DNA from: a virus
Taxonomy: Duplodnaviria > Heunggongvirae > Uroviricota > Caudoviricetes
Direction: 5' to 3' (one strand)
Length of the DNA stretch: 33,386 nucleotides
Virus record (IMG/VR): IMGVR_UViG_3300031760_000012
Location: 1 to 33,386 of that record
A model generated the notes under the pieces. The model was not told the origin of the DNA. It was given only the letters and a program-made list of their open reading frames with translations, and did no database searches. Shown one piece after another: positions 4,910 to 13,942 of this stretch (positions are counted from its first letter, which is position 1; each line of letters starts with the position of its first letter). The position numbers were made by a program, and so were the translations under genes.

Positions 4910-5090
4910 CTGTCACGAATGCCTCAACCGCCACGAGTGCGAACTGTTTAGCCATGTGTGTGAGTGCGAAATCGAATACTGCAGGGATTACGTCCAGTGC
5001 GACGAATACAAGGCGACATTTCGCAGAGAATGGTTCGAGTCCGCGGAGGACGCGTACGGAGAGTACGACCCTGATGGATTTAGTTGGTAA
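4902..5090 (+). CDS. Small Cys-rich hypothetical protein (62 aa)
   Basis: GGAGG RBS; CHEC-x4-C and further Cys; tightly packed between neighbouring genes. Confidence 0.6.
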   Translation: MINCHECLNRHECELFSHVCECEIEYCRDYVQCDEYKATFRREWFESAEDAYGEYDPDGFSW

Positions 5091-5104
5091 AAGGAGGCGA
5101 TATT

Positions 5105-6724
5105 TTGGGGAAGATGACTGTCCAGAATTTTGTCGTGAAGATTCACAGTGACAGACTGGCGAAAAATAAATGGAATCTGGACCTTCCGCTAAGTGAAGCG
5201 CATAAGAATGATGAAGTAGTTGCTTTAGCAAGCAGTCAGGTTCTCAGATGGATCGACGAGTTGAACGGACTGAGCGACATCGAAGACGAAGTAATAACGC
5301 TCAAAAAGCGTTTGAAATTTATCAAAAAGCAAAAGAACTCCGCCGAAAACAAGCGGAAAATCCGCAGAATCTACGAAAGACTTGATGAGCTGCAATTCAA
5401 ACCTGATTACGTAATCATAGTTATGGATAAGATGGCTCACTTCAAAAGAGCCGCGAAAGGATTCACGATCAACGGAATCAAATACGTGCGACTCCTGAGC
5501 TCTGCCGGACAAGTCAAGACCGGAAGCTCTACATATATCAGCGAGAGATTATATGAAGAGATCAATCGGAGAATCGACAACGGCAGAAACAAAGAGATCC
5601 CGCTAGTTCCGGCAAAGCTGGAATCATACCGGGCGCTGACATGCAGCAGCAGTAAGCGCGTGACCACTCCGAGGATCGCCGTTGTGCCAGATTGCGAGAC
5701 GCACTTCAAAGAAGACACGCTATTCCTATCGTACGGCGACGCAGATGAGCCGGTGTCAGAATTCGTCGAGAATGCAGAGCTCAGCCTGACTGAGAGCGAC
5801 GGATACGGACTGATCCTTCCGAGTATGGCGGAACAATGGAGTAAGGACCTTGGGTTAGATTATGTCCCTGGCGCGTTTATCATAAGATCGTCATGGGCGA
5901 AAGGGGCTGTATTCCCGTTCGACTTTATCCGGTTCGCAGATGAGGTTGCAAAAAAAAGAAAGGTCGATGATGTTTGGGGAAACGAGATCGACCTCTCTGA
6001 AGTAGATATAATTCTTACCGCCAGTATGCTCAAGCTGTATGAGTGTTACGACAGCTGTCAACACTATGTCGATTGTTGCGAAGAGAACAAGTATGATTTC
6101 GCTGTTACTAAATGGGCTGATAGCGAGTTAGACCCAGTTAGAGCGACCAATTACCAATTTCTTGCTCCGTACGATTTGTCTGACGACGACATAGACGAGC
6201 TCCTGAGCGATTCGATTAACACTATCAAGGACATTGTATCACAGAATTCTGCAACCGCAAGTCTTTTTCTTCACGGGTCAGGAGTCGCCGAAAGGAATCC
6301 GGTTGATCTCGTCAACGATTTTTCCAAAGGGCTTCTTATCGACAGCAGGCTCCACAACGATCCGTATGTAATGAATCGTATTTATAATCTCGTAAAAAAG
6401 AAGATCCGCGATTTGTCGATCGGTGTGGTCGACGTACCGGGCAACTTTTCCATTATTGGCGGTGACCCGTGGTCACTCATGCAGAACACATTCGGCATGG
6501 AGGTCACAGGGTTGCTCCCACCACACACAATCTACTCTTCCTTCTGGCGGCAGAAAGGTGTCAGCGATGTAGTCGCATTCCGCGCACCAATGTCAACAGC
6601 AGAAAACATCGTCAAGATGCATGTATCCGACAGCGATAAAGCGGCTGACTGGTACTCACATATCAATAACGTAACATTAATGTCGTCGTTTTCAGGCGAG
6701 TGTCATAGCCTGAATGGAGCCGAT
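5105..6724 (+). CDS. yonO: YonO-like single-subunit DNA-dependent RNA polymerase (RdRP-like family), exon 1
   Basis: Large ORF with TESDGYGLI, FRAPMS and ...SLNGAD; splicing to 7010 rebuilds the NGADKDGD metal-binding (DxDGD) motif; AAGGAGG RBS before TTG at 5105 (ATG at 5114 is an alternative start); SPbeta-like position upstream of HU and the packaging genes. Confidence 0.85.
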
Positions 6725-7009
6725 AAACAAACTTGTCCCCCACTCTGGCGACAGGGTGGTGCGCATCTGGTGAACTGAGAAATCTCAGGTGTACAGCATA
6801 ACTGTGCTAACGGTGAAGCACTGTTCAACAGTTAATACCGTGCCAAGGCGGACTGGTGACAGACCGCAAGGTGTAACGACTAGGATGTACCTTCTCACCG
6901 AGAAGATGAGATCCGTACTGTGTCGGTGAAACTCCGGCATGGGAAGTGCCAGACATGTCTCAGACATGATGAGATAGTCTATTCCTTATGGTGACATGAG
7001 GTAGTAAAG
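6725..7009 (+). ncRNA. Group I intron (IA-like, ORF-less, 285 nt) in the RNA polymerase catalytic motif
   Basis: 5' exon ends in U and intron ends in G; P1 GAU/GUC with U.G at the splice site; P10 exon-2 AAG/CUU; P2 with GCGA loop; R element GUAACGACUA and S element GAGAUAGUCU forming P7 GACUA (6878-6882)/UAGUC (6975-6979); P9 with GUGA loop; removal is frame-exact. Confidence 0.92.
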
Positions 7010-8140
7010 AAGGACGGCGACTTAATATTTACGACAAATCATCCTGTGTTGATGCGAAACTTTGTAAAGCGACCGGTTATTGTATGTGAACAGAGACGTG
7101 CAGAAAAGAAAATCGTAACAGAGAAGGATCTTATCCAGTCGAATATAGACGGGTATGGGGATATGATCGGCGTTATAACGAATAGAACTAGCGCCCGCAA
7201 CGTGATTAGATCTAAATTCCCAAAGGGATCTAGGGAATATGAAGAGCTCACCAGACGCACTTTCTTCGGGCAGCTCGCCCAACAGGATGCTATAGATAAG
7301 GCAAAAGGCATAATTACCAAAGATCTTCCGGCGTATTGGCACTCGAGGAAGAAAATTCTCCAGTCTGATATGAGTGAAGAAGAAAAGCAGTTTCAGCTGT
7401 CAATCGTTGCTGACAAAAAAGCGTACTTCCAGAAGTATATCTACAGTAGTCTGAAAAAGAAGTGCCGTGAGTACGACATGAACACAAAGAAGAAGGCGCT
7501 GAGATTGTTTAGGAAAGATGTCGACGAATTAAAGGCGACTCCTGAAGAAGAGCTTTCTCCTGACGAGAAGCAATTCCTGTCTGACTACGAATTGTACAAT
7601 CCAGTAGTTGACGGCACCGATACGGTCAACAGGATATGTCACCGCGTAGAAAGAGAGTTTCAATCATACGTTGTTAGGCGTAAGGCGGAAACTGAGTTCG
7701 ACTACACGATTTTGAAGTCAGATAAAAACTACAAAGGGAATCATCTGCCAGAGATCAGAGAGATCTATATGGAATACAAGATGCGTGCTGAGACGTATGC
7801 AAAGACCGCCAAGAAGAACCGTGTTGATTCTTACGACGCAAACGAACAGTTTACACTTATGCGTGACGATTTTAAGAGGCGGTGCGAAGAGGTCTGCCCT
7901 AACAGCGAAATGCTGTGCGACATCATTATCGATATTACGTACGCAAGAGAACGCAGTCGTCAGTTCGCGTGGGATGTATGCGGAGAACAGATCATTCAGA
8001 ATCTTTTGAAGAAGAACGATTATATGATCAATATGCCAGTCCGCGACGACGAGGGTGACATTACGTTCAAAGGACGCACATACAGAGTTGACCGTGTTCC
8101 ATATATTCAGGAAGAAGAGGAGATTACGTATGCAAATTAA
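7010..8140 (+). CDS. yonO: YonO-like RNA polymerase, exon 2 (spliced product about 916 aa)
   Basis: Frame opens KDGDLIFTTNHPVL upstream of the track ORF 7046..8140; contains IGVITN and QQDAIDKAKG segments. Confidence 0.85.
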   Translation, partial: KDGDLIFTTNHPVLMRNFVKRPVIVCEQRRAEKKIVTEKDLIQSNIDGYGDMIGVITNRTSARNVIRSKFPKGSREYEELTRRTFFGQLAQQDAIDKAKGIITKDLPAYWHSRKKILQSDMSEEEKQFQLSIVADKKAYFQKYIYSSLKKKCREYDMNTKKKALRLFRKDVDELKATPEEELSPDEKQFLSDYELYNPVVDGTDTVNRICHRVEREFQSYVVRRKAETEFDYTILKSDKNYKGNHLPEIREIYMEYKMRAETYAKTAKKNRVDSYDANEQFTLMRDDFKRRCEEVCPNSEMLCDIIIDITYARERSRQFAWDVCGEQIIQNLLKKNDYMINMPVRDDEGDITFKGRTYRVDRVPYIQEEEEITYAN

Positions 8141-8918
8141 CGATATTATATTAAATGAAAGAAACTACATCGAAAAGCTGATCGACGGAGGCGACCTCGG
8201 ACAAAGACCATCCAAAGCCCTTTCTTTGGCGGCAAGGCTCTTTCGTGAAGACGGTTACGATAAAGAGATGCTCCGCCCGCTTCTCGAGGAGTTGATCTTG
8301 AAACACAATCCGAACACATCATTACCTAGATGGAGCCAGACGATCGATTGGGCGATCAGGTACAGCGACAAGAAGCTGATCCAGATCGACAGCATCCCGA
8401 TCACTCAGCTCGAGATCGACATTTGCAAATCCATGGACAGCAATCCAAAGGAGCGTCTTATGTTCACCTTATTCGTCATGGCGAAATTTTATCACATGGC
8501 GAATCCGAAAAATCAGGGCTGGGTCAACATCCCTGACGGGACGCTGTTCAAACTGGCGAACGTCAGTGTCAACGCAAAACGCCAGTCGCTGATGCTGAAT
8601 GAGCTTATGCAGGACGAGTACGTCGAATTCGCGAATACAATCGACAATACATCGATCAAGGTCACATTCATGGATTTCGACTCACCCGCTGTTGTGACAG
8701 TCGACGATCTGCGGAATATCGGAAATCAGTACCGCCGCTTCTGCGGAGAGCCATACATGACATGCGAGAATTGCGGACTGACGGTACGACGTAAGACGAA
8801 TAATCAGAAGTATTGTAAAGAGTGTGCCAAAAAAATAAACATTCAAAAAGCCTCATATTCATCGCAATTACGGAGAGCTGCCTTGATTCAGGAGCATGAA
8901 AGTTCATGCGATGCGTAA
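8130..8918 (+). CDS. Hypothetical protein with C-terminal Zn ribbon, overlapping the RNAP stop
   Basis: GAGGAG RBS, ATG at 8130; CENCG...YCKEC near the C-terminus. Confidence 0.75.
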   Translation: MQINDIILNERNYIEKLIDGGDLGQRPSKALSLAARLFREDGYDKEMLRPLLEELILKHNPNTSLPRWSQTIDWAIRYSDKKLIQIDSIPITQLEIDICKSMDSNPKERLMFTLFVMAKFYHMANPKNQGWVNIPDGTLFKLANVSVNAKRQSLMLNELMQDEYVEFANTIDNTSIKVTFMDFDSPAVVTVDDLRNIGNQYRRFCGEPYMTCENCGLTVRRKTNNQKYCKECAKKINIQKASYSSQLRRAALIQEHESSCDA

Positions 8919-9030
8919 TATATAGCAGAATTTTTGTAGTGGCTAATTGATTGTGAAATGGTTTTGCGGTGAGCACAGCCATTTGTGTCATTTCTGAAGT
9001 TACAATGCTATGGGAAGTAAAGGAGTAAAG

Positions 9031-9333
9031 ATGAAAAGGGAAGCAGTGACGAAGAAAGATCTCGTCAATCGCTTGTCTGAGAAGGGCTACACGAAATATG
9101 CAGCTGGTATCATCTGGGATGATGTTGTCGAAGTGATGAGGGAAGCACTCGTCGAAGGGCACGACATCAAATTCATGGGATTTGGATCGCTCGTTATTCG
9201 TGAGATTAATGAGCGGCCCAGCATCCACCCAGGAACGAAAGAGCGAATTATCATACCGGCGCATAAAACGATTCGGTTCCTTCCGGGCGAGATATTAAAG
9301 TCTGAACTGGCTAACGGTTTCATAAGGGGTTGA
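9031..9333 (+). CDS. hup: HU/IHF-family DNA-binding protein
   Basis: TKKDLV...GHDIKFMGFGSL...RPSIHPGTKERIIIPAHKTIRFLPGEILK matches the HU signature; AAGGAG RBS before 9031. Confidence 0.9.
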   Translation: MKREAVTKKDLVNRLSEKGYTKYAAGIIWDDVVEVMREALVEGHDIKFMGFGSLVIREINERPSIHPGTKERIIIPAHKTIRFLPGEILKSELANGFIRG

Positions 9334-9337
9334 TGCG

Positions 9338-10282
9338 ATGCCGAGGAAAAGCAAAGTACCAGTCCCCGGAGCAACCAAGCCAAAGGCGACGAGACCAGAG
9401 ATTGAATTAAAAATAGAGAAGATGCCGGAAGACAAAATCAAATGTAGCATGTGTGGCAGGGTCCTTAGAACGAAGGGAAATGCCTCGAGCTACTATAAGT
9501 CTAACAGCATTATTCATAAAGGAAACGGCGGGTACATACCCGTCTGTAAGAGCTGCCTCGAAGACTTGTTTTCAGCATATAAGAACGCATTAGGGTCAAC
9601 CCAAAAGGCGATCCAGCGCATATGTATGAAATTCGACGTCTATTGGAATGAGCGCATCTACGAAAGCATTCTCGAGAAGCGCGACACAAGAGGTGGAATG
9701 TTTAAGATCGGCGAATATCTGAAGACAGTCAACTTATACCAGTATCGTGGCAGTACGTACGATACAACACTAGACGAAGAGGCGTCAAGGATACAGACGC
9801 AGATTGACCTCGTAAGAGCTGGCGAAGAGATGACAGAAGATATCGATGTCTCTCCTGAGCAGATTAGAACATGGGGTTCTGGCTTTGATCCTCTGTTCTA
9901 CCGAGAGCTCGACCAGCGCTACGATTACTGGACCGAGGATCTTGACTTCGACAAAGTCGATAAGGCGACAGAGACGCTGATCCGCCAGATATGCATACAG
10001 GAAGTCATCCTGTCTCGCGACGCAGCAGCAGGTCGTCCGATCGACAAGACAGCAAAGATGATCGACTCGCTGCTCGGCAGTTTAAATCTGAAGCCAGTCC
10101 AGAAGCCACAAAAGACAGTGGTCGAAGACGCAATGGATGAAGAAACAGAGATGACTCCGTTCGGGGTGTGGATCCGTAAGATTGAGGATGACCGCCCTAT
10201 TCCGGAGGCAGAAGAACAGTTCGCTGATGTTGACCATTTGAAGGACTACATCCAGACTTGGTTCGTTGGCGGTCTGTGCAAT
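9338..10282 (+). CDS. Putative small terminase subunit (gene directly upstream of TerL), exon 1
   Basis: N-terminal CSMC...CKSC; the frame reads ...TWFVGGLC(N/K) and joins MMHIPN... after intron removal; function inferred from position only. Confidence 0.6.
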
Positions 10283-10709
10283 TATAAAGCTTTAAATATA
10301 GTCTTATCTGACATATATAGCAAAATAGTTGCCGTTCTCAGTAATGAGTTCGTAAAAAATCACATTGAATTGCTGGAAACCCGTAAAGCTGATTTTGCCA
10401 CAGTGTAGTTATGAGATACAAACAAGCACGATGGTTACGAAAGTAGAAAAAATAAAATCAGATTGGACAAGGTTAAATCCTAAATCCTATAACAATCGGC
10501 AATCAGCAGCCAAGCCCTGATGAGGGGAAGGTTCAACGACCATCTCGAAAGAGAGTACACGGTAAGCGATTGATCGTGGAAGTGGTGTGCATCCTACACA
10601 GAGGATGAAGATATGGTCTGCACTGCATGGAAACATGTAGGAGCTGCTACCTCCTAGCAGCCGCACGGGAGTAGCGCCCCGAATATAGAACGAAAGGAGG
10701 TGTAATGAC

Positions 10710-11873
10710 ATGAAGATAATGAAGTCTTTTAAGATCAGGATTTATCCAACAAAAGAACAGGAAGAATTAATCTGGAAACATATACATACATGTAGATTTG
10801 TATGGAATTATATGTTGAATTTACAAGAAGAGCGATATGAATCTGGAAACAATTATTTATCAGCATTTGATATGACGAAACTTTTAACAATATTAAAGAA
10901 TGATGGAGAACATAGCTGGATGTATGATGTAGCGAATACTTCTATGCAGATAGTATGCAGAGATCTAGATAAAGCTTACAAAAATTTTTTTAATAAAGAA
11001 AAAAGACATCCTAGGTTTAAAAGCAAAAAGACATCAAAAGCGTCATATCCTGTTGATTCAAATAGGTTTTATTTTGCAGATAATAAACATTGCCAAATTT
11101 CAGTAGTAGGACGTGTTAAATATAAGACAGATTTTGACTTCCCTGTAGGAAGAAATGCGTGCAAGTTTCGTAATGTGCGGATTCAATATCAACCAGCACG
11201 CAACATATGGATGCTTACATTAACTATGGGTGTCGAAAAACAAGAGCCAGAGTTAACTGATATTCATATGGGGATTGATCTTGGTGTTAAAGAATTAGCA
11301 GTAGTAGCGTTTGGTGATCAAAAGATAGTATTTCATAATATTAACAAGTCACAAAAAGTCATAAGACTTGAAAATAAAATAAAACATGTGCAAAGAAGTA
11401 TATCTCGAAAATACGAGGCTTCTAAGAAACGAACTGGTAATTATGAAAAGACCAATAATATTATTAAAGAAGAGCAGAAGTTAAGAGAGTTATATCACAA
11501 ATTAGCTTGCATTAGAGAAAATTATATACATCAGGTAACAAATAGTTTAATAAAAATGAAACCAGATGTTGTTATAATGGAAGATCTAGATATTCAAAGA
11601 ATGAAAAGAAATAATTATAGAGATATGAGAAAAAGAATATCAGATGCTAAAATGTATGAATTTATAAAAAAAATGAAATACAAATGCGAGTGGAATGGAA
11701 TTCAGTTTGTGCAAGCAGAATGGTATTTTAAATCCAGCAAAACTTGTTCTAACTGCGGAGCTGTTAAGCAGGATTTAAAACGTAGTGATAGAACGTATGT
11801 TTGTCCAAAGTGTGGATTTGTAGAAGATCGTGATTATAACGCTGCTATTAATCTAATGAGATACGTAGCTTAG
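10710..11873 (+). CDS. tnpB: RNA-guided endonuclease TnpB (IS200/IS605-IS607 OrfB family), 387 aa
   Basis: N-terminal KIRIYPTKEQ HTH, RuvC triad GIDLG / MEDL / DRDYNAA all intact, Zn ribbon CSNCG...CPKCG; AGGAGGT RBS; visibly AT-richer than the flanking genes. Confidence 0.95.
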   Translation: MKIMKSFKIRIYPTKEQEELIWKHIHTCRFVWNYMLNLQEERYESGNNYLSAFDMTKLLTILKNDGEHSWMYDVANTSMQIVCRDLDKAYKNFFNKEKRHPRFKSKKTSKASYPVDSNRFYFADNKHCQISVVGRVKYKTDFDFPVGRNACKFRNVRIQYQPARNIWMLTLTMGVEKQEPELTDIHMGIDLGVKELAVVAFGDQKIVFHNINKSQKVIRLENKIKHVQRSISRKYEASKKRTGNYEKTNNIIKEEQKLRELYHKLACIRENYIHQVTNSLIKMKPDVVIMEDLDIQRMKRNNYRDMRKRISDAKMYEFIKKMKYKCEWNGIQFVQAEWYFKSSKTCSNCGAVKQDLKRSDRTYVCPKCGFVEDRDYNAAINLMRYVA

Positions 11874-12003
11874 ATAATCAGGCTACGGTCTAAAGGTGTC
11901 ATTACACCTCAAAGCTGCGGAGTACTAAATGCATAAAGCAATTATGCTTTGTTACTGCGATATAGTGCTATGATGCAGTAAGTTCTATTTGTGAACATAA
12001 TGG
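11874..12003 (+). ncRNA. Putative TnpB omegaRNA scaffold coinciding with the intron 3' end
   Basis: AAGCTGCGGAGTAC...GTGC-TATGATGCAGTAAG follows the clostridial TnpB right-end pattern as recalled (AAGCCTGTGGAGTGT...ACAC-GATGAAGCAGGAAG), with compensatory pairs CTGC/GCAG and GTAC/GTGC; internal AAAGC-n-GCTTT stem. Confidence 0.7.
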
Positions 12004-12201
12004 ATGATGCATATCCCGAACGCGTTCTCAGACAAGTTCGAGGAGGCAATGGAGAAATATACAGTCGAGAAGCCTGAATATCACGCCGACGATGACGACA
12101 TCTCTCTTGACGAGCTCTTCGAAAAAGCAGAAGAAGAAGGAAGAAAGGTGAGGTCGAATGGCGGGACATCAGGGCCGTCCGACGAAGACGAAGATTATTA
12201 A
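12004..12201 (+). CDS. Putative small terminase, exon 2 (spliced product about 380 aa)
   Basis: MMHIPNAFSDKFEEAMEKYTVEKPEY... has no RBS of its own and continues exon 1 in frame; overlaps the TerL start. Confidence 0.65.
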   Translation: MMHIPNAFSDKFEEAMEKYTVEKPEYHADDDDISLDELFEKAEEEGRKVRSNGGTSGPSDEDEDY

Positions 12202-13942
12202 GAAGCCGTCAGCGGAACATATCGACAGAATTCTGGAAGGTGTCGCGGCATGGACGTCATTCTACAGAGCGAATCCGCACAGATTCGTGAGCGACTATAT
12301 GCGGATCAACCTGCGCGAGTTCCAGAAGATTTTGCTGACAGCGTTTAACGAAAATTACAATTCAGTATACATCGCCGCCAGAGGACAAGGGAAGTCTTTT
12401 CTTCTGGCGGTCTTTTGTTGCTATAGATGCATTTTGTACCCAGGTACGAAAATCTGTATCGCAGCAGGCACACGTGATCAGGCGACAAACGTAATCGAGA
12501 AGATCATGAACGAACTTGTTCCCGGGTCAGAACTGCTCAAGAACGAAATCGACACATATTCCACAAGCAATCTCAAAGCAGCTGTTGAATGGAAGAACGG
12601 GTCGGTTATTAAGGTCGTTACAGCGAGAGACTCCGCCAGAGGAAACAGGGCGAACATCTTGCTGATCGACGAGTTCCGTATGGTCGACAAGAACACAATC
12701 GACACAGTTCTGAAGCGATTCCTGACAGCACCACGTATGCCTGGGTATATGGCGAAGCCGGAGTACCAGCACTTGGCAGAGCGAAACAAGGAGATATATT
12801 TGTCCTCCGCGTTCTTCAAGTCACACTGGTCGTACGATAAAGTGCGCGACTTCGTAAAGGCGATGTTGAGCGGACGGCGCTATTTTGCGTGTGGGTTTCC
12901 ATATCAACTCTCTCTGGCGGAAGGACTTCTGAGCCGCGGAGCTGTTGAGGACGAAATGTCCGAAGCCGGCTTCTCAGAGACGAAGTGGCAGATGGAGATG
13001 GAGACGCGTTGGTTCGGTGACGCAGATGGGACGTTTTTCGACTTCGACTCGATCGCGCAGAATCGCAAGATCAAGTACCCAATGCTGCCATCAGATATGG
13101 CGTCAAAGCTTGGCAACTCGAAGAAAGTCAAGATCCCGCCGAAGCAACCGGGCGAACTTAGAATCATCTCGTGCGACTTGGCGCTGATGACGACAGCGAA
13201 CAATAAGAACGACGCATCCGCGACGTTTGTGAATCAGTTAGTGCCGACAAAGGCGAACAAGTACATGAGTAACTTCGTGTACACAGAGTCGTCCGAAGGT
13301 CAGCACACGCAAGATCAGGCGTTGCGAATCAGGAAGCTCTACGAGGAGTACGATGCTGATTATATAATCATCGACGCAAAGGGCGTAGGTTTTGGTATCG
13401 TCGACGCGCTAGTTCGTGATATCAACGATCCGGAGACCGGAGAGACGTATCCGGGGCTTGGTTGCAAGAACAACAAAGAATGGGATAAGCGATGCCTGAA
13501 TCCACATTCGGTCAAGGCGATCTGGGTTGTAAACGCAGACCAGAAGTTCAACTCAGAGTGCGCGATCTTGCTAAGAGACGGAATGCGATCTGGAAGAATT
13601 CGTCTGCTGGAAACAGAGTACGACGGAGAGTCACGCCTGAACGAAATCAAAGGATTCAAAAGCATGGCGACAGAAGACAAGCTCGCACTAGAGCTGCCGT
13701 ACGTAAATACGACGTTATTGGTCAATGAGATGATCAACCTGCGACACGAAGAAAAGACAGGATATGTGCGGATCATTAAGGCGAAAAGCAAGCGGAAGGA
13801 TAGATATTCTTCCATATCATATAATTACTGGCTGGCGTGCCAACTGGAAGAGAAGCTCGAGAAGAAGCATGCAGCTGCTGTCAAGAGCGGCGACTCATTC
13901 ATGTTCAGGGCGCCGGTTATCAAAAAGAATAAGAGGTGGTGA
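12158..13942 (+). CDS. terL: Terminase large subunit
   Basis: Walker A AARGQGKS, Walker B LLIDE, nuclease-domain acidic motifs ISCDLA, IIDAKG and RKDRYSS. Confidence 0.92.
   Translation: MAGHQGRPTKTKIIKKPSAEHIDRILEGVAAWTSFYRANPHRFVSDYMRINLREFQKILLTAFNENYNSVYIAARGQGKSFLLAVFCCYRCILYPGTKICIAAGTRDQATNVIEKIMNELVPGSELLKNEIDTYSTSNLKAAVEWKNGSVIKVVTARDSARGNRANILLIDEFRMVDKNTIDTVLKRFLTAPRMPGYMAKPEYQHLAERNKEIYLSSAFFKSHWSYDKVRDFVKAMLSGRRYFACGFPYQLSLAEGLLSRGAVEDEMSEAGFSETKWQMEMETRWFGDADGTFFDFDSIAQNRKIKYPMLPSDMASKLGNSKKVKIPPKQPGELRIISCDLALMTTANNKNDASATFVNQLVPTKANKYMSNFVYTESSEGQHTQDQALRIRKLYEEYDADYIIIDAKGVGFGIVDALVRDINDPETGETYPGLGCKNNKEWDKRCLNPHSVKAIWVVNADQKFNSECAILLRDGMRSGRIRLLETEYDGESRLNEIKGFKSMATEDKLALELPYVNTTLLVNEMINLRHEEKTGYVRIIKAKSKRKDRYSSISYNYWLACQLEEKLEKKHAAAVKSGDSFMFRAPVIKKNKRW

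Follow-up and report, generated by a model that had tools for sequence, protein, structure and literature searches.

The closest described systems are the IStrons, of which two groups are relevant here. Group B (IS607-type) IStrons include BcISt1, CbISt3/CbISt4 of the Clostridium botulinum phages c-st and D-1873, and CboIStron (PMC4227781; 10.1101/2023.11.20.567912), and Group A (IS200/IS605-type) IStrons are represented by CdISt1/CdiIStron of Clostridioides difficile. IStrons, their copies carrying only ORF-B and their copies in phages have already been published (PMC4227781), as have homing driven by TnpB and the intron's conflict with its guide RNA (10.1101/2023.11.20.567912), and a 2026 review pointed out that IStrons without TnpA could spread by intron homing (PMC13565253). 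The element described here lies in a tailed phage genome, in a stretch of 33,386 nucleotides (hereafter, the window; positions 1 to 33,386 of record IMGVR_UViG_3300031760_000012). Positions 10283–12003 of the window are a complete transposase-less IStron, in which a group I ribozyme is combined with an intact tnpB and a conserved scaffold for the guide RNA; the element probably spreads by RNA-guided homing into phage copies that lack it. Given the published IStrons with ORF-B only, the phage IStrons, the TnpB homing and the proposal of TnpA-less homing, the locus singled out by the original prediction, which was made from the sequence alone, is not novel in kind.

The locus resembles Group B in that a 5' group I intron is followed by tnpB and then by a guide-RNA scaffold ending at the 3' splice site, the right end terminates in GG, an inverted repeat encloses the open reading frame (ORF), and both phage-borne and TnpA-less copies are known. 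Furthermore, the tails of its relatives match the RNA family RAGATH-18, as does the c-st IStron. Unlike in Group B, the 5' exon ends in U, forming a normal U.G pair, and not in G; insertion following GG (AGGG, TGGG, GAGG) gives way to the flank ...TGCAAT; the flank varies among relatives, with the internal guide sequence following it; neither TnpA nor a remnant of it was seen in the clade; and the enclosing repeat is 14 bp long and not >80 % AU. The 3' end reads ...CGG in Group B and ...AATGG in the window, and three relatives (L010, L016 and L022) end in ...AACGG. With Group A the locus shares a U at the last exon position, the absence of a target duplication, the frequent lack of an intact TnpA, and an NNRAT-type pentanucleotide before the element (TTGAT in CdISt1; GCAAT, ATGAT, TAGAT and others here). 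However, where Group A has a TTGAT, ATTAT or TTTAT flank, a TCAG 3' end and a Y1 TnpA or its remnant, GCAAT, AATGG and no Y1_Tnp match are found here, and the TnpB and guide RNA are of the IS607/RAGATH-18 type. In addition, CdISt1 is present in many near-identical copies per genome at different sites, whereas the present elements occupy one site per lineage.

Two further systems invite comparison. The TnpB of ISFba1 (PDB 8iaz; PMC11061315) is likewise 387 aa long, agrees in the arrangement of its D-E-D residues and zinc finger and has its guide directly 3' of the scaffold, but it needs AGGAG as its target-adjacent motif (TAM) and is not described as intron-borne. Mobile group I introns of the T4 td/I-TevI type are likewise site-specific introns in a conserved phage gene, with occupied and empty alleles in related phages, but the cargo here is an RNA-guided nuclease, the specificity of which would come from the flanking exon and not from a protein–DNA interface. 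The departure from the published groups is thus a combination of features, in which TnpB and guide RNA of the IS607 type and a right end in GG occur together with a canonical U.G splice site, a variable non-GG flank and an internal guide sequence fitted to the site.

The boundaries of the element are defined by two phage contigs (L027 and L028) that are 95–96 % identical to the window and carry an uninterrupted gene for the 380-aa protein. At the junction both read ...GGTCTGTGCAAT followed directly by ATGATGCATATTCCGAACGC (that is, ...TGCAAT followed by ATGATGCATATTCCGAACGC). Window position 10282 is therefore joined to 12004 in these alleles, and the element spans exactly 10283–12003 without a target duplication. 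The empty-allele gene is 1,143 nt long, as is the sequence obtained by joining window positions 9338–10282 to 12004–12201. The junction is unambiguous at the DNA level, the last exon base being U and the last intron base G, and the element ends coincide with the splice sites, so that removal of the element restores the host ORF (380 aa). The left flank ...GGTCTGTGCAAT, ending in GCAAT, has no GG at the junction, as the original prediction had stated. The search with the flanks that it proposed yielded exact empty alleles in L027 and L028, and such alleles coexist with occupied ones in single samples. The features of the locus are collected in Table 1.

Table 1. Features of the IStron and of its host gene (window coordinates)
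Feature	Position	Strand	Evidence
IStron, 1,721 bp, no target-site duplication	10283..12003	+	Empty alleles L027, L028; DNA contigs in X3, X6 skip exactly 1,721 bases
Exon 1 of host gene (YonG family, probable small terminase; 315 codons)	9338..10282	+	ORF runs on into intron; uninterrupted homologues
Final 5 nt of exon 1 (GCAAT), forming the 5' strand of P1; candidate TAM	10278..10282	+	In-register pairing with 10328–10332; TAM role inferred
Group I ribozyme core (P1/P2 to P9)	10313..10640	+	Rfam RF00028 (Intron_gpI), 84.9 bits, E-value 1.8e-20, full model
GUUGC, internal guide sequence forming the 3' strand of P1 (G.U at splice site)	10328..10332	+	Read from sequence; fixed position before conserved CGTTC
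5' arm of tnpB-enclosing helix, covering the Shine–Dalgarno sequence and the first base of AUG	10697..10710	+	14-nt perfect inverted repeat with 11897–11910
tnpB (387 aa), IS607-type RNA-guided RuvC nuclease	10710..11873	+	Pfam HTH_OrfB_IS605, OrfB_IS605, Cas12f1-like_TNB
Guide-RNA scaffold	11874..12003	+	Aligns with tails of 9 relatives; relatives score as RAGATH-18
3' arm of tnpB-enclosing helix; alternatively part of local hairpin 11894–11909	11897..11910	+	Inverted repeat, structure alignment
Window-specific inner hairpin replacing apical part of RAGATH-18 motif	11931..11955	+	Alignment with relatives; contains GCAATTAT (11938–11945)
Terminal G of intron (3' splice site), last base of right end	12003..12003	+	Sequence, right-end alignment, empty alleles
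Predicted 20-nt guide (ATGATGCATATCCCGAACGC), with its counterpart in empty alleles as target	12004..12023	+	Directly after conserved right end, where relatives' flanks become unrelated
Exon 2 of host gene (65 codons and stop)	12004..12201	+	Spliced product of 380 aa, colinear with P0121, P0122 and L006 homologue

The complete group I core announced beforehand is matched by Rfam over the full model, and the element is a predicted self-splicing intron of group IA type, with tnpB and the scaffold in its 3' peripheral region. Six related introns have other 5' flanks (GAAGT twice, GAGAT, TAGAT, CGGCT and ATGAT), each matched by the internal guide sequence of the same intron; the last exon base is also T in seven relatives. 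Across the seven elements, cognate flanks and internal guide sequences form 34 of 35 possible base pairs in the same register, in comparison with an average of 2.95 of 5 pairs for non-cognate combinations, and the observed total is reached by 2 of 5,040 permutations. Such covariation of P1 with the 5' exon argues for selection on splicing, and the ribozyme is, as read from these alignments, fitted to its own insertion site. The sequence gives no evident P10 pairing to exon 2. A contig from an RNA library (run X19) joins 10282 to 12004 and leaves tnpB uncovered, and the same junction is also present as DNA; this contig was dropped as evidence for splicing, since it is indistinguishable from transcription or DNA of an empty allele.

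The only ORF of the element is tnpB, and the three RuvC acidic residues with which the original prediction had credited its product are in place within a protein matched by three Pfam domains. The triad (D190, E291 and D373) and the zinc-finger CxxC pairs (C346/C349 and C365/C368) are invariant among 12 relatives. The best solved relative is ISFba1 TnpB (PDB 8iaz, E-value 1.5e-55), compared with 8e-40 for ISDra2 TnpB. The GC content of tnpB is 28–36 %, versus 44–53 % in the flanks. No intron-encoded protein endonuclease (LAGLIDADG, GIY-YIG, HNH, His-Cys, PD-(D/E)xK or EDxHD) was found in the element.

The predicted guide-RNA scaffold follows tnpB directly. Alignment of the tails of nine relatives gave a consensus structure of 28 pairs, 10 of which show compensatory changes, and the relatives' tails match RAGATH-18 (RF03064) immediately after tnpB; RAGATH-18 has been shown experimentally to be the guide RNA of IS607 TnpBs (PMC11061315). 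The window scaffold shares the stems on both sides of the RAGATH-18 motif, and its last 130 nt align with the RAGATH-18-scoring tails, which bears out the omegaRNA-like 3' end noticed earlier. In the nearest relatives (L011, L024 and L025) the last 29 nt, GCAGTAAGTTCTATTTGTGAACATAATGG, recur without change, and the other relatives have them in near-identical form. Conservation of the right end reaches its very last base in 10 relatives, and beyond this point the flanks are unrelated. By analogy with IS607 TnpB biology (PMC11061315; 10.1101/2023.11.20.567912), positions 12004–12023 would serve as the guide; these 20 nt are the beginning of exon 2, as the empty alleles confirm, and this is where the original prediction had placed it. 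A BLAST search of the element tail against phages returned chance matches only.

Two structural features of the scaffold deserve attention. An 8-mer spanning the 5' splice site, GCAATTAT (10278–10285), recurs in the window-specific hairpin (11938–11945), the arms of which (ATAAAGC/GCTTTGT) resemble the first intron bases (TATAAAGCTTTA); the recurrence may be due to chance (rough expectation 0.1–0.3) or may provide a decoy for the internal guide sequence. The second feature is the enclosing helix, in which the Shine–Dalgarno sequence and the tnpB start codon are paired with the scaffold's first hairpin. Its duplex is estimated at -25 kcal/mol, and the helix is kept via compensatory changes in L019 and L022. 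This arrangement fits the competition that has been reported between splicing and the formation of guide RNA (10.1101/2023.11.20.567912). An internal AGGAGG upstream of tnpB was considered as the true TAM, in which case the target would be an ORF-less intron. The candidate was rejected because the motif lies at ribosome-binding-site distance from the start codon; it is also absent at the junction of the intron-less relative L013, and the TAM-contact residues differ from those of ISFba1.

Experiments on IS605 and IS607 elements have demonstrated homing driven by TnpB (PMC10055086; 10.1101/2023.11.20.567912), and the course of events proposed here, from guide use, TAM recognition and cleavage to repair copying and splicing, is modelled on experiments with other TnpBs (PMC10055086; 10.1101/2023.11.20.567912; PMC11061315). 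The element would be transcribed within the late packaging operon, and most transcripts would be spliced, restoring the 380-aa YonG-family protein. In unspliced transcripts, the helix that hides the ribosome-binding site of tnpB would open, allowing TnpB to be made and to bind the scaffold, with the first ~16–20 nt of exon 2 as the guide. In a co-infecting related phage without the element, the end of exon 1 (about GCAAT) would be read as the TAM and the start of exon 2 as the target, and the DNA would be cut ~16–22 bp into exon 2. Repair of the break from the occupied allele would copy the element in, and the occupied allele itself would be protected because its right end (AATGG) replaces the TAM.

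Several observations weigh against homing as the way in which the element spreads. The end of exon 1, put forward as the TAM by the original prediction, finds no parallel among the measured TAMs of IS607 TnpBs (AGGAG, GAGGG and TGGG), all of which GCAAT fails to resemble. The residues K80, K83 and N121, through which ISFba1 TnpB contacts its TAM, correspond to T77, Q80 and S117 here (an alignment gap covers N61/N62, and N122 is retained as N118), and with these contacts replaced the TAM of the present TnpB is not predictable. The 5' flanks differ among the relatives (GCAAT, GAAGT, GAGAT, TAGAT, CGGCT and ATGAT), and hence a short TAM, or a TAM re-tuned at each site, would be required. At guide position 12 (window position 12015) the window has C and both sequenced empty alleles have T, and cleavage by ISFba1 TnpB is impaired by single mismatches at guide positions 1–13 (PMC11061315). 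Neither RAGATH-18 nor any other Rfam omegaRNA family gives a match in the window, even at an E-value ≤10, which for RAGATH-18 is explained by the replaced inner hairpin; the scaffold also has an A.C mismatch in its first stem. Finally, the wider clade is found at many sites, including intergenic places and intron-less forms, so that some ectopic movement must occur and homing is not the sole means of spread. Guide mismatches (position 12 here and position 1 in L011 versus L013/L021) were not counted as evidence of escape, since they are expected by chance at the background divergence of 4–9 %.

The scaffold of the window, which of all those compared departs most from RAGATH-18, and the flank that matches no known TAM also favour a different explanation, according to which the element is stranded and inherited vertically, its TnpB is unable to cut here owing to a wrong TAM or the altered scaffold, and the polymorphism reflects an old gain followed by loss through recombination with intron-less phages. 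Element and flanks in run X3 differ from the window at similar rates (~2 %), as would be expected under co-inheritance. Nevertheless, every lineage examined has a tnpB of full length that encodes all the catalytic and zinc residues, pairing in the outer scaffold stems is maintained by compensatory changes, and the right end does not differ from that of the nearest relatives; one would expect a dead 1.2-kb nuclease gene to decay in a late operon. A stranded element is considered rather improbable.

The distribution of alleles among samples bears on the same question. The sequencing runs that contain this region are of bovine gut origin, and the phage is a rumen phage. In each of two independent bovine-gut DNA runs from other studies (X3 and X6), occupied and empty alleles are present together, with some contigs bridging both element junctions and others joining 10282 directly to 12004. 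Near-identical copies are found only at this site, namely in the window, in L034 and in runs X1, X3 and X6. L034, a contig of the Joint Genome Institute (JGI) from a third independent metagenome, carries the same occupied allele and is 100 % identical to the window over positions 8868–12734, that is, over the element with at least 1.4 kb upstream and 0.7 kb downstream; 87 differences are present over window positions 7970–8867, and the sequence is mosaic further upstream. This 3.9-kb tract is compatible with co-conversion and equally with ordinary phage mosaicism, which alone could explain it if the element were stranded. No co-conversion signature was detected relative to the empty alleles L027/L028, the nearest differences lying at -30 and +12; as these differences extend on both sides up to the site, there is no sign of recent exchange with these two phages.

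The coexistence of occupied and empty alleles in single samples, and the position of the target in a conserved gene beside the terminase gene, might also suggest that TnpB acts mainly as an inter-phage weapon, which cuts a packaging-region gene of competitors without the element (marker exclusion), with copying of the element as a side effect. Such effects have been described for phage homing endonucleases (reviewed in PMC13565253). However, the molecular steps would be the same as in homing, independent evidence is lacking here, and the sequenced empty alleles carry a guide mismatch, making this explanation highly unlikely.

The absence of tnpA, claimed initially for the element, extends to the whole 117,455-bp genome, in which no Resolvase or Y1_Tnp match was found and which contains a single tnpB. 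Likewise, no transposase-type Pfam match was found among the called genes next to about 15 loci of relatives. The nearest TnpB proteins (55–74 % identity) are all encoded on phage-like contigs; a protein search of viral_contigs and genome_contigs for close copies returned only relatives of 46–49 % identity, and the exact right-end pattern had no match in viral_contigs and one in metagenome_contigs, which is the same allele. The relatives occupy a variety of sites: that of L011 is within a 122-aa gene after ERF (L013 and L021 having the empty allele), that of L016 at the end of a kinase-like gene, that of L022 within a PD-(D/E)xK gene and that of P0050 (on 10 contigs and always at one site) between the holin and endolysin genes, and others are in several intergenic places. 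Identical TnpB proteins were not seen at two sites; wherever an identical protein recurred, on up to 10 contigs of different samples, the site was the same. The intron is missing from some relatives, their left ends being cut at different points and their right end being the same. The original prediction had contrasted occurrence at a single site, expected for homing, with occurrence at many sites, expected for transposition; the first holds for near-identical copies, while the wider clade is found at many sites, intergenic and intron-less forms included.

This variety of sites, intergenic ones among them, is also what would be expected if the element were a non-autonomous transposon moved by a TnpA encoded elsewhere (in the host chromosome, a plasmid or another phage), with TnpB only restoring the element after excision. 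Such a model has been published for IStrons without TnpA (10.1101/2023.11.20.567912; PMC4227781), the low GC content of tnpB shows that the gene was acquired from elsewhere, and the search for TnpA was confined to the phage genome and the relatives' loci. On the other hand, the left flank lacks the GG needed by IS607 serine transposases and the junction core dinucleotides are unlike (AT versus GG), intron-less relatives share no conserved left end, no transposase was seen among the called genes at about 15 loci or in the 117-kb genome, and identical TnpB proteins were never met at two sites. Moreover, the internal guide sequence is fitted to each site, whereas transposing IStrons keep one target motif. 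Movement by a TnpA supplied in trans is therefore regarded as unlikely, and the data fit RNA-guided intron homing better than transposition.

Among the relatives, units consisting of tnpB and guide RNA without a ribozyme are present in intergenic places in L013 (4992–6282), L019 (about 8940–10280), L021 and L025. The left end of the L013 unit lies only 9–12 nt before the ATG, and a 3-nt TGA is found at both junctions. In L022, a truncated tnpB (219 aa; 306–965) followed by a RAGATH-18 match (1007–1067) is located beside a full IStron on the same phage contig, indicating that two elements of the family, one of them decaying, are present in one genome.

The phage record is 117,455 bp long and rated complete, and the window represents its first 33 kb. 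The host gene product is a probable small terminase of the YonG family. Its gene is preceded by an HU-like gene and lies directly upstream of that for the large terminase, TerL (12158–13942), which is followed by the portal gene, an order matching yonG-yonF-yonE of SPbeta. A search with exon 1 identified uninterrupted 380-aa homologues (P0121 and P0122, encoded on L027 and L028) with 99 % and 98 % identity, for which Pfam YonG_N/YonG_C annotation was precomputed; the more distant homologues P0123, P0124, P0129 and L006 are also uninterrupted and colinear across the junction. Two large neighbouring ORFs (5084–6778 and 7046–8140) have no Pfam match, and no intron was detected by Rfam at gathering score at window positions 6716–7021.

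Group I introns were also found elsewhere in this genome and in other phages. A second intron detected by Rfam in the same genome (L002 1349–1653, minus strand; at about 87.5–87.8 kb of the genome) splits a DNA polymerase III alpha (PHP domain) gene; the ORF of 326 aa that follows it has no Pfam match and may encode a homing endonuclease of a type not yet covered by models. The sister phage L034 has an additional group I intron (7217–7540, minus strand) ~5 kb upstream of the YonG gene, where Rfam detected none in the window, and intron content therefore varies between near relatives. In the Enterocloster phage CB457P2 (L004 3946–5340) and four sister phages, an intron with a 77 % identical core resides in the large-terminase gene and carries a GIY-YIG (I-TevI-like) gene, which shows that closely related cores carry either a protein nuclease or TnpB. 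It was ruled out as a same-site intron with different cargo, as it lies in the TerL gene and not in the YonG homologue. The genome additionally encodes an RT-2 RNA (RF03077, 104.9 bits; L029 19785–19964, at about 52.8 kb of the genome), a motif accompanying a reverse transcriptase.

TnpB residues 116–119 (window positions 11055–11066), which align with the TAM-reading residues N121/N122 of ISFba1, are among the most variable stretches of an otherwise conserved protein. The variants (DSNR, NADK, NTDR, NSDR, RSEM, RTDT, RSDA, DNTS and RYES) differ between elements with different 5' flanks.

A tentative and rather doubtful extension of the homing model is that the whole clade may be an IS607-derived TnpB lineage that has been freed from the rule of GG and serine transposase and now exists as a homing intron that is RNA-guided and retargetable, the intron-less copies being products of right-end-anchored copying and not of transposition. 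At a new site, the guide would change automatically, as it is the flank itself; the internal guide sequence would change together with it, as shown by the covariation described above, and so may the TAM preference. For the latter, the variable loop at residues 116–119 is the sole hint in the protein sequences and suggests a shift with the site.

The value of the locus is tempered by the facts that the concept has already been published and that the host is uncultured. If the homing interpretation is correct, however, the element would be a natural case in which an RNA-guided nuclease replaces the protein homing endonuclease of a phage intron, with both substrates, the occupied and the empty allele, circulating in the same animals. 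The clade provides comparative material for the co-adaptation of TAM preference, ribozyme guide sequence and guide RNA to a new site, and for asking whether the synonymous guide differences of the sequenced empty alleles might represent escape variants. As a conserved helix conceals the start of tnpB, the clade may also serve for studying the balance between splicing and guide-RNA formation.

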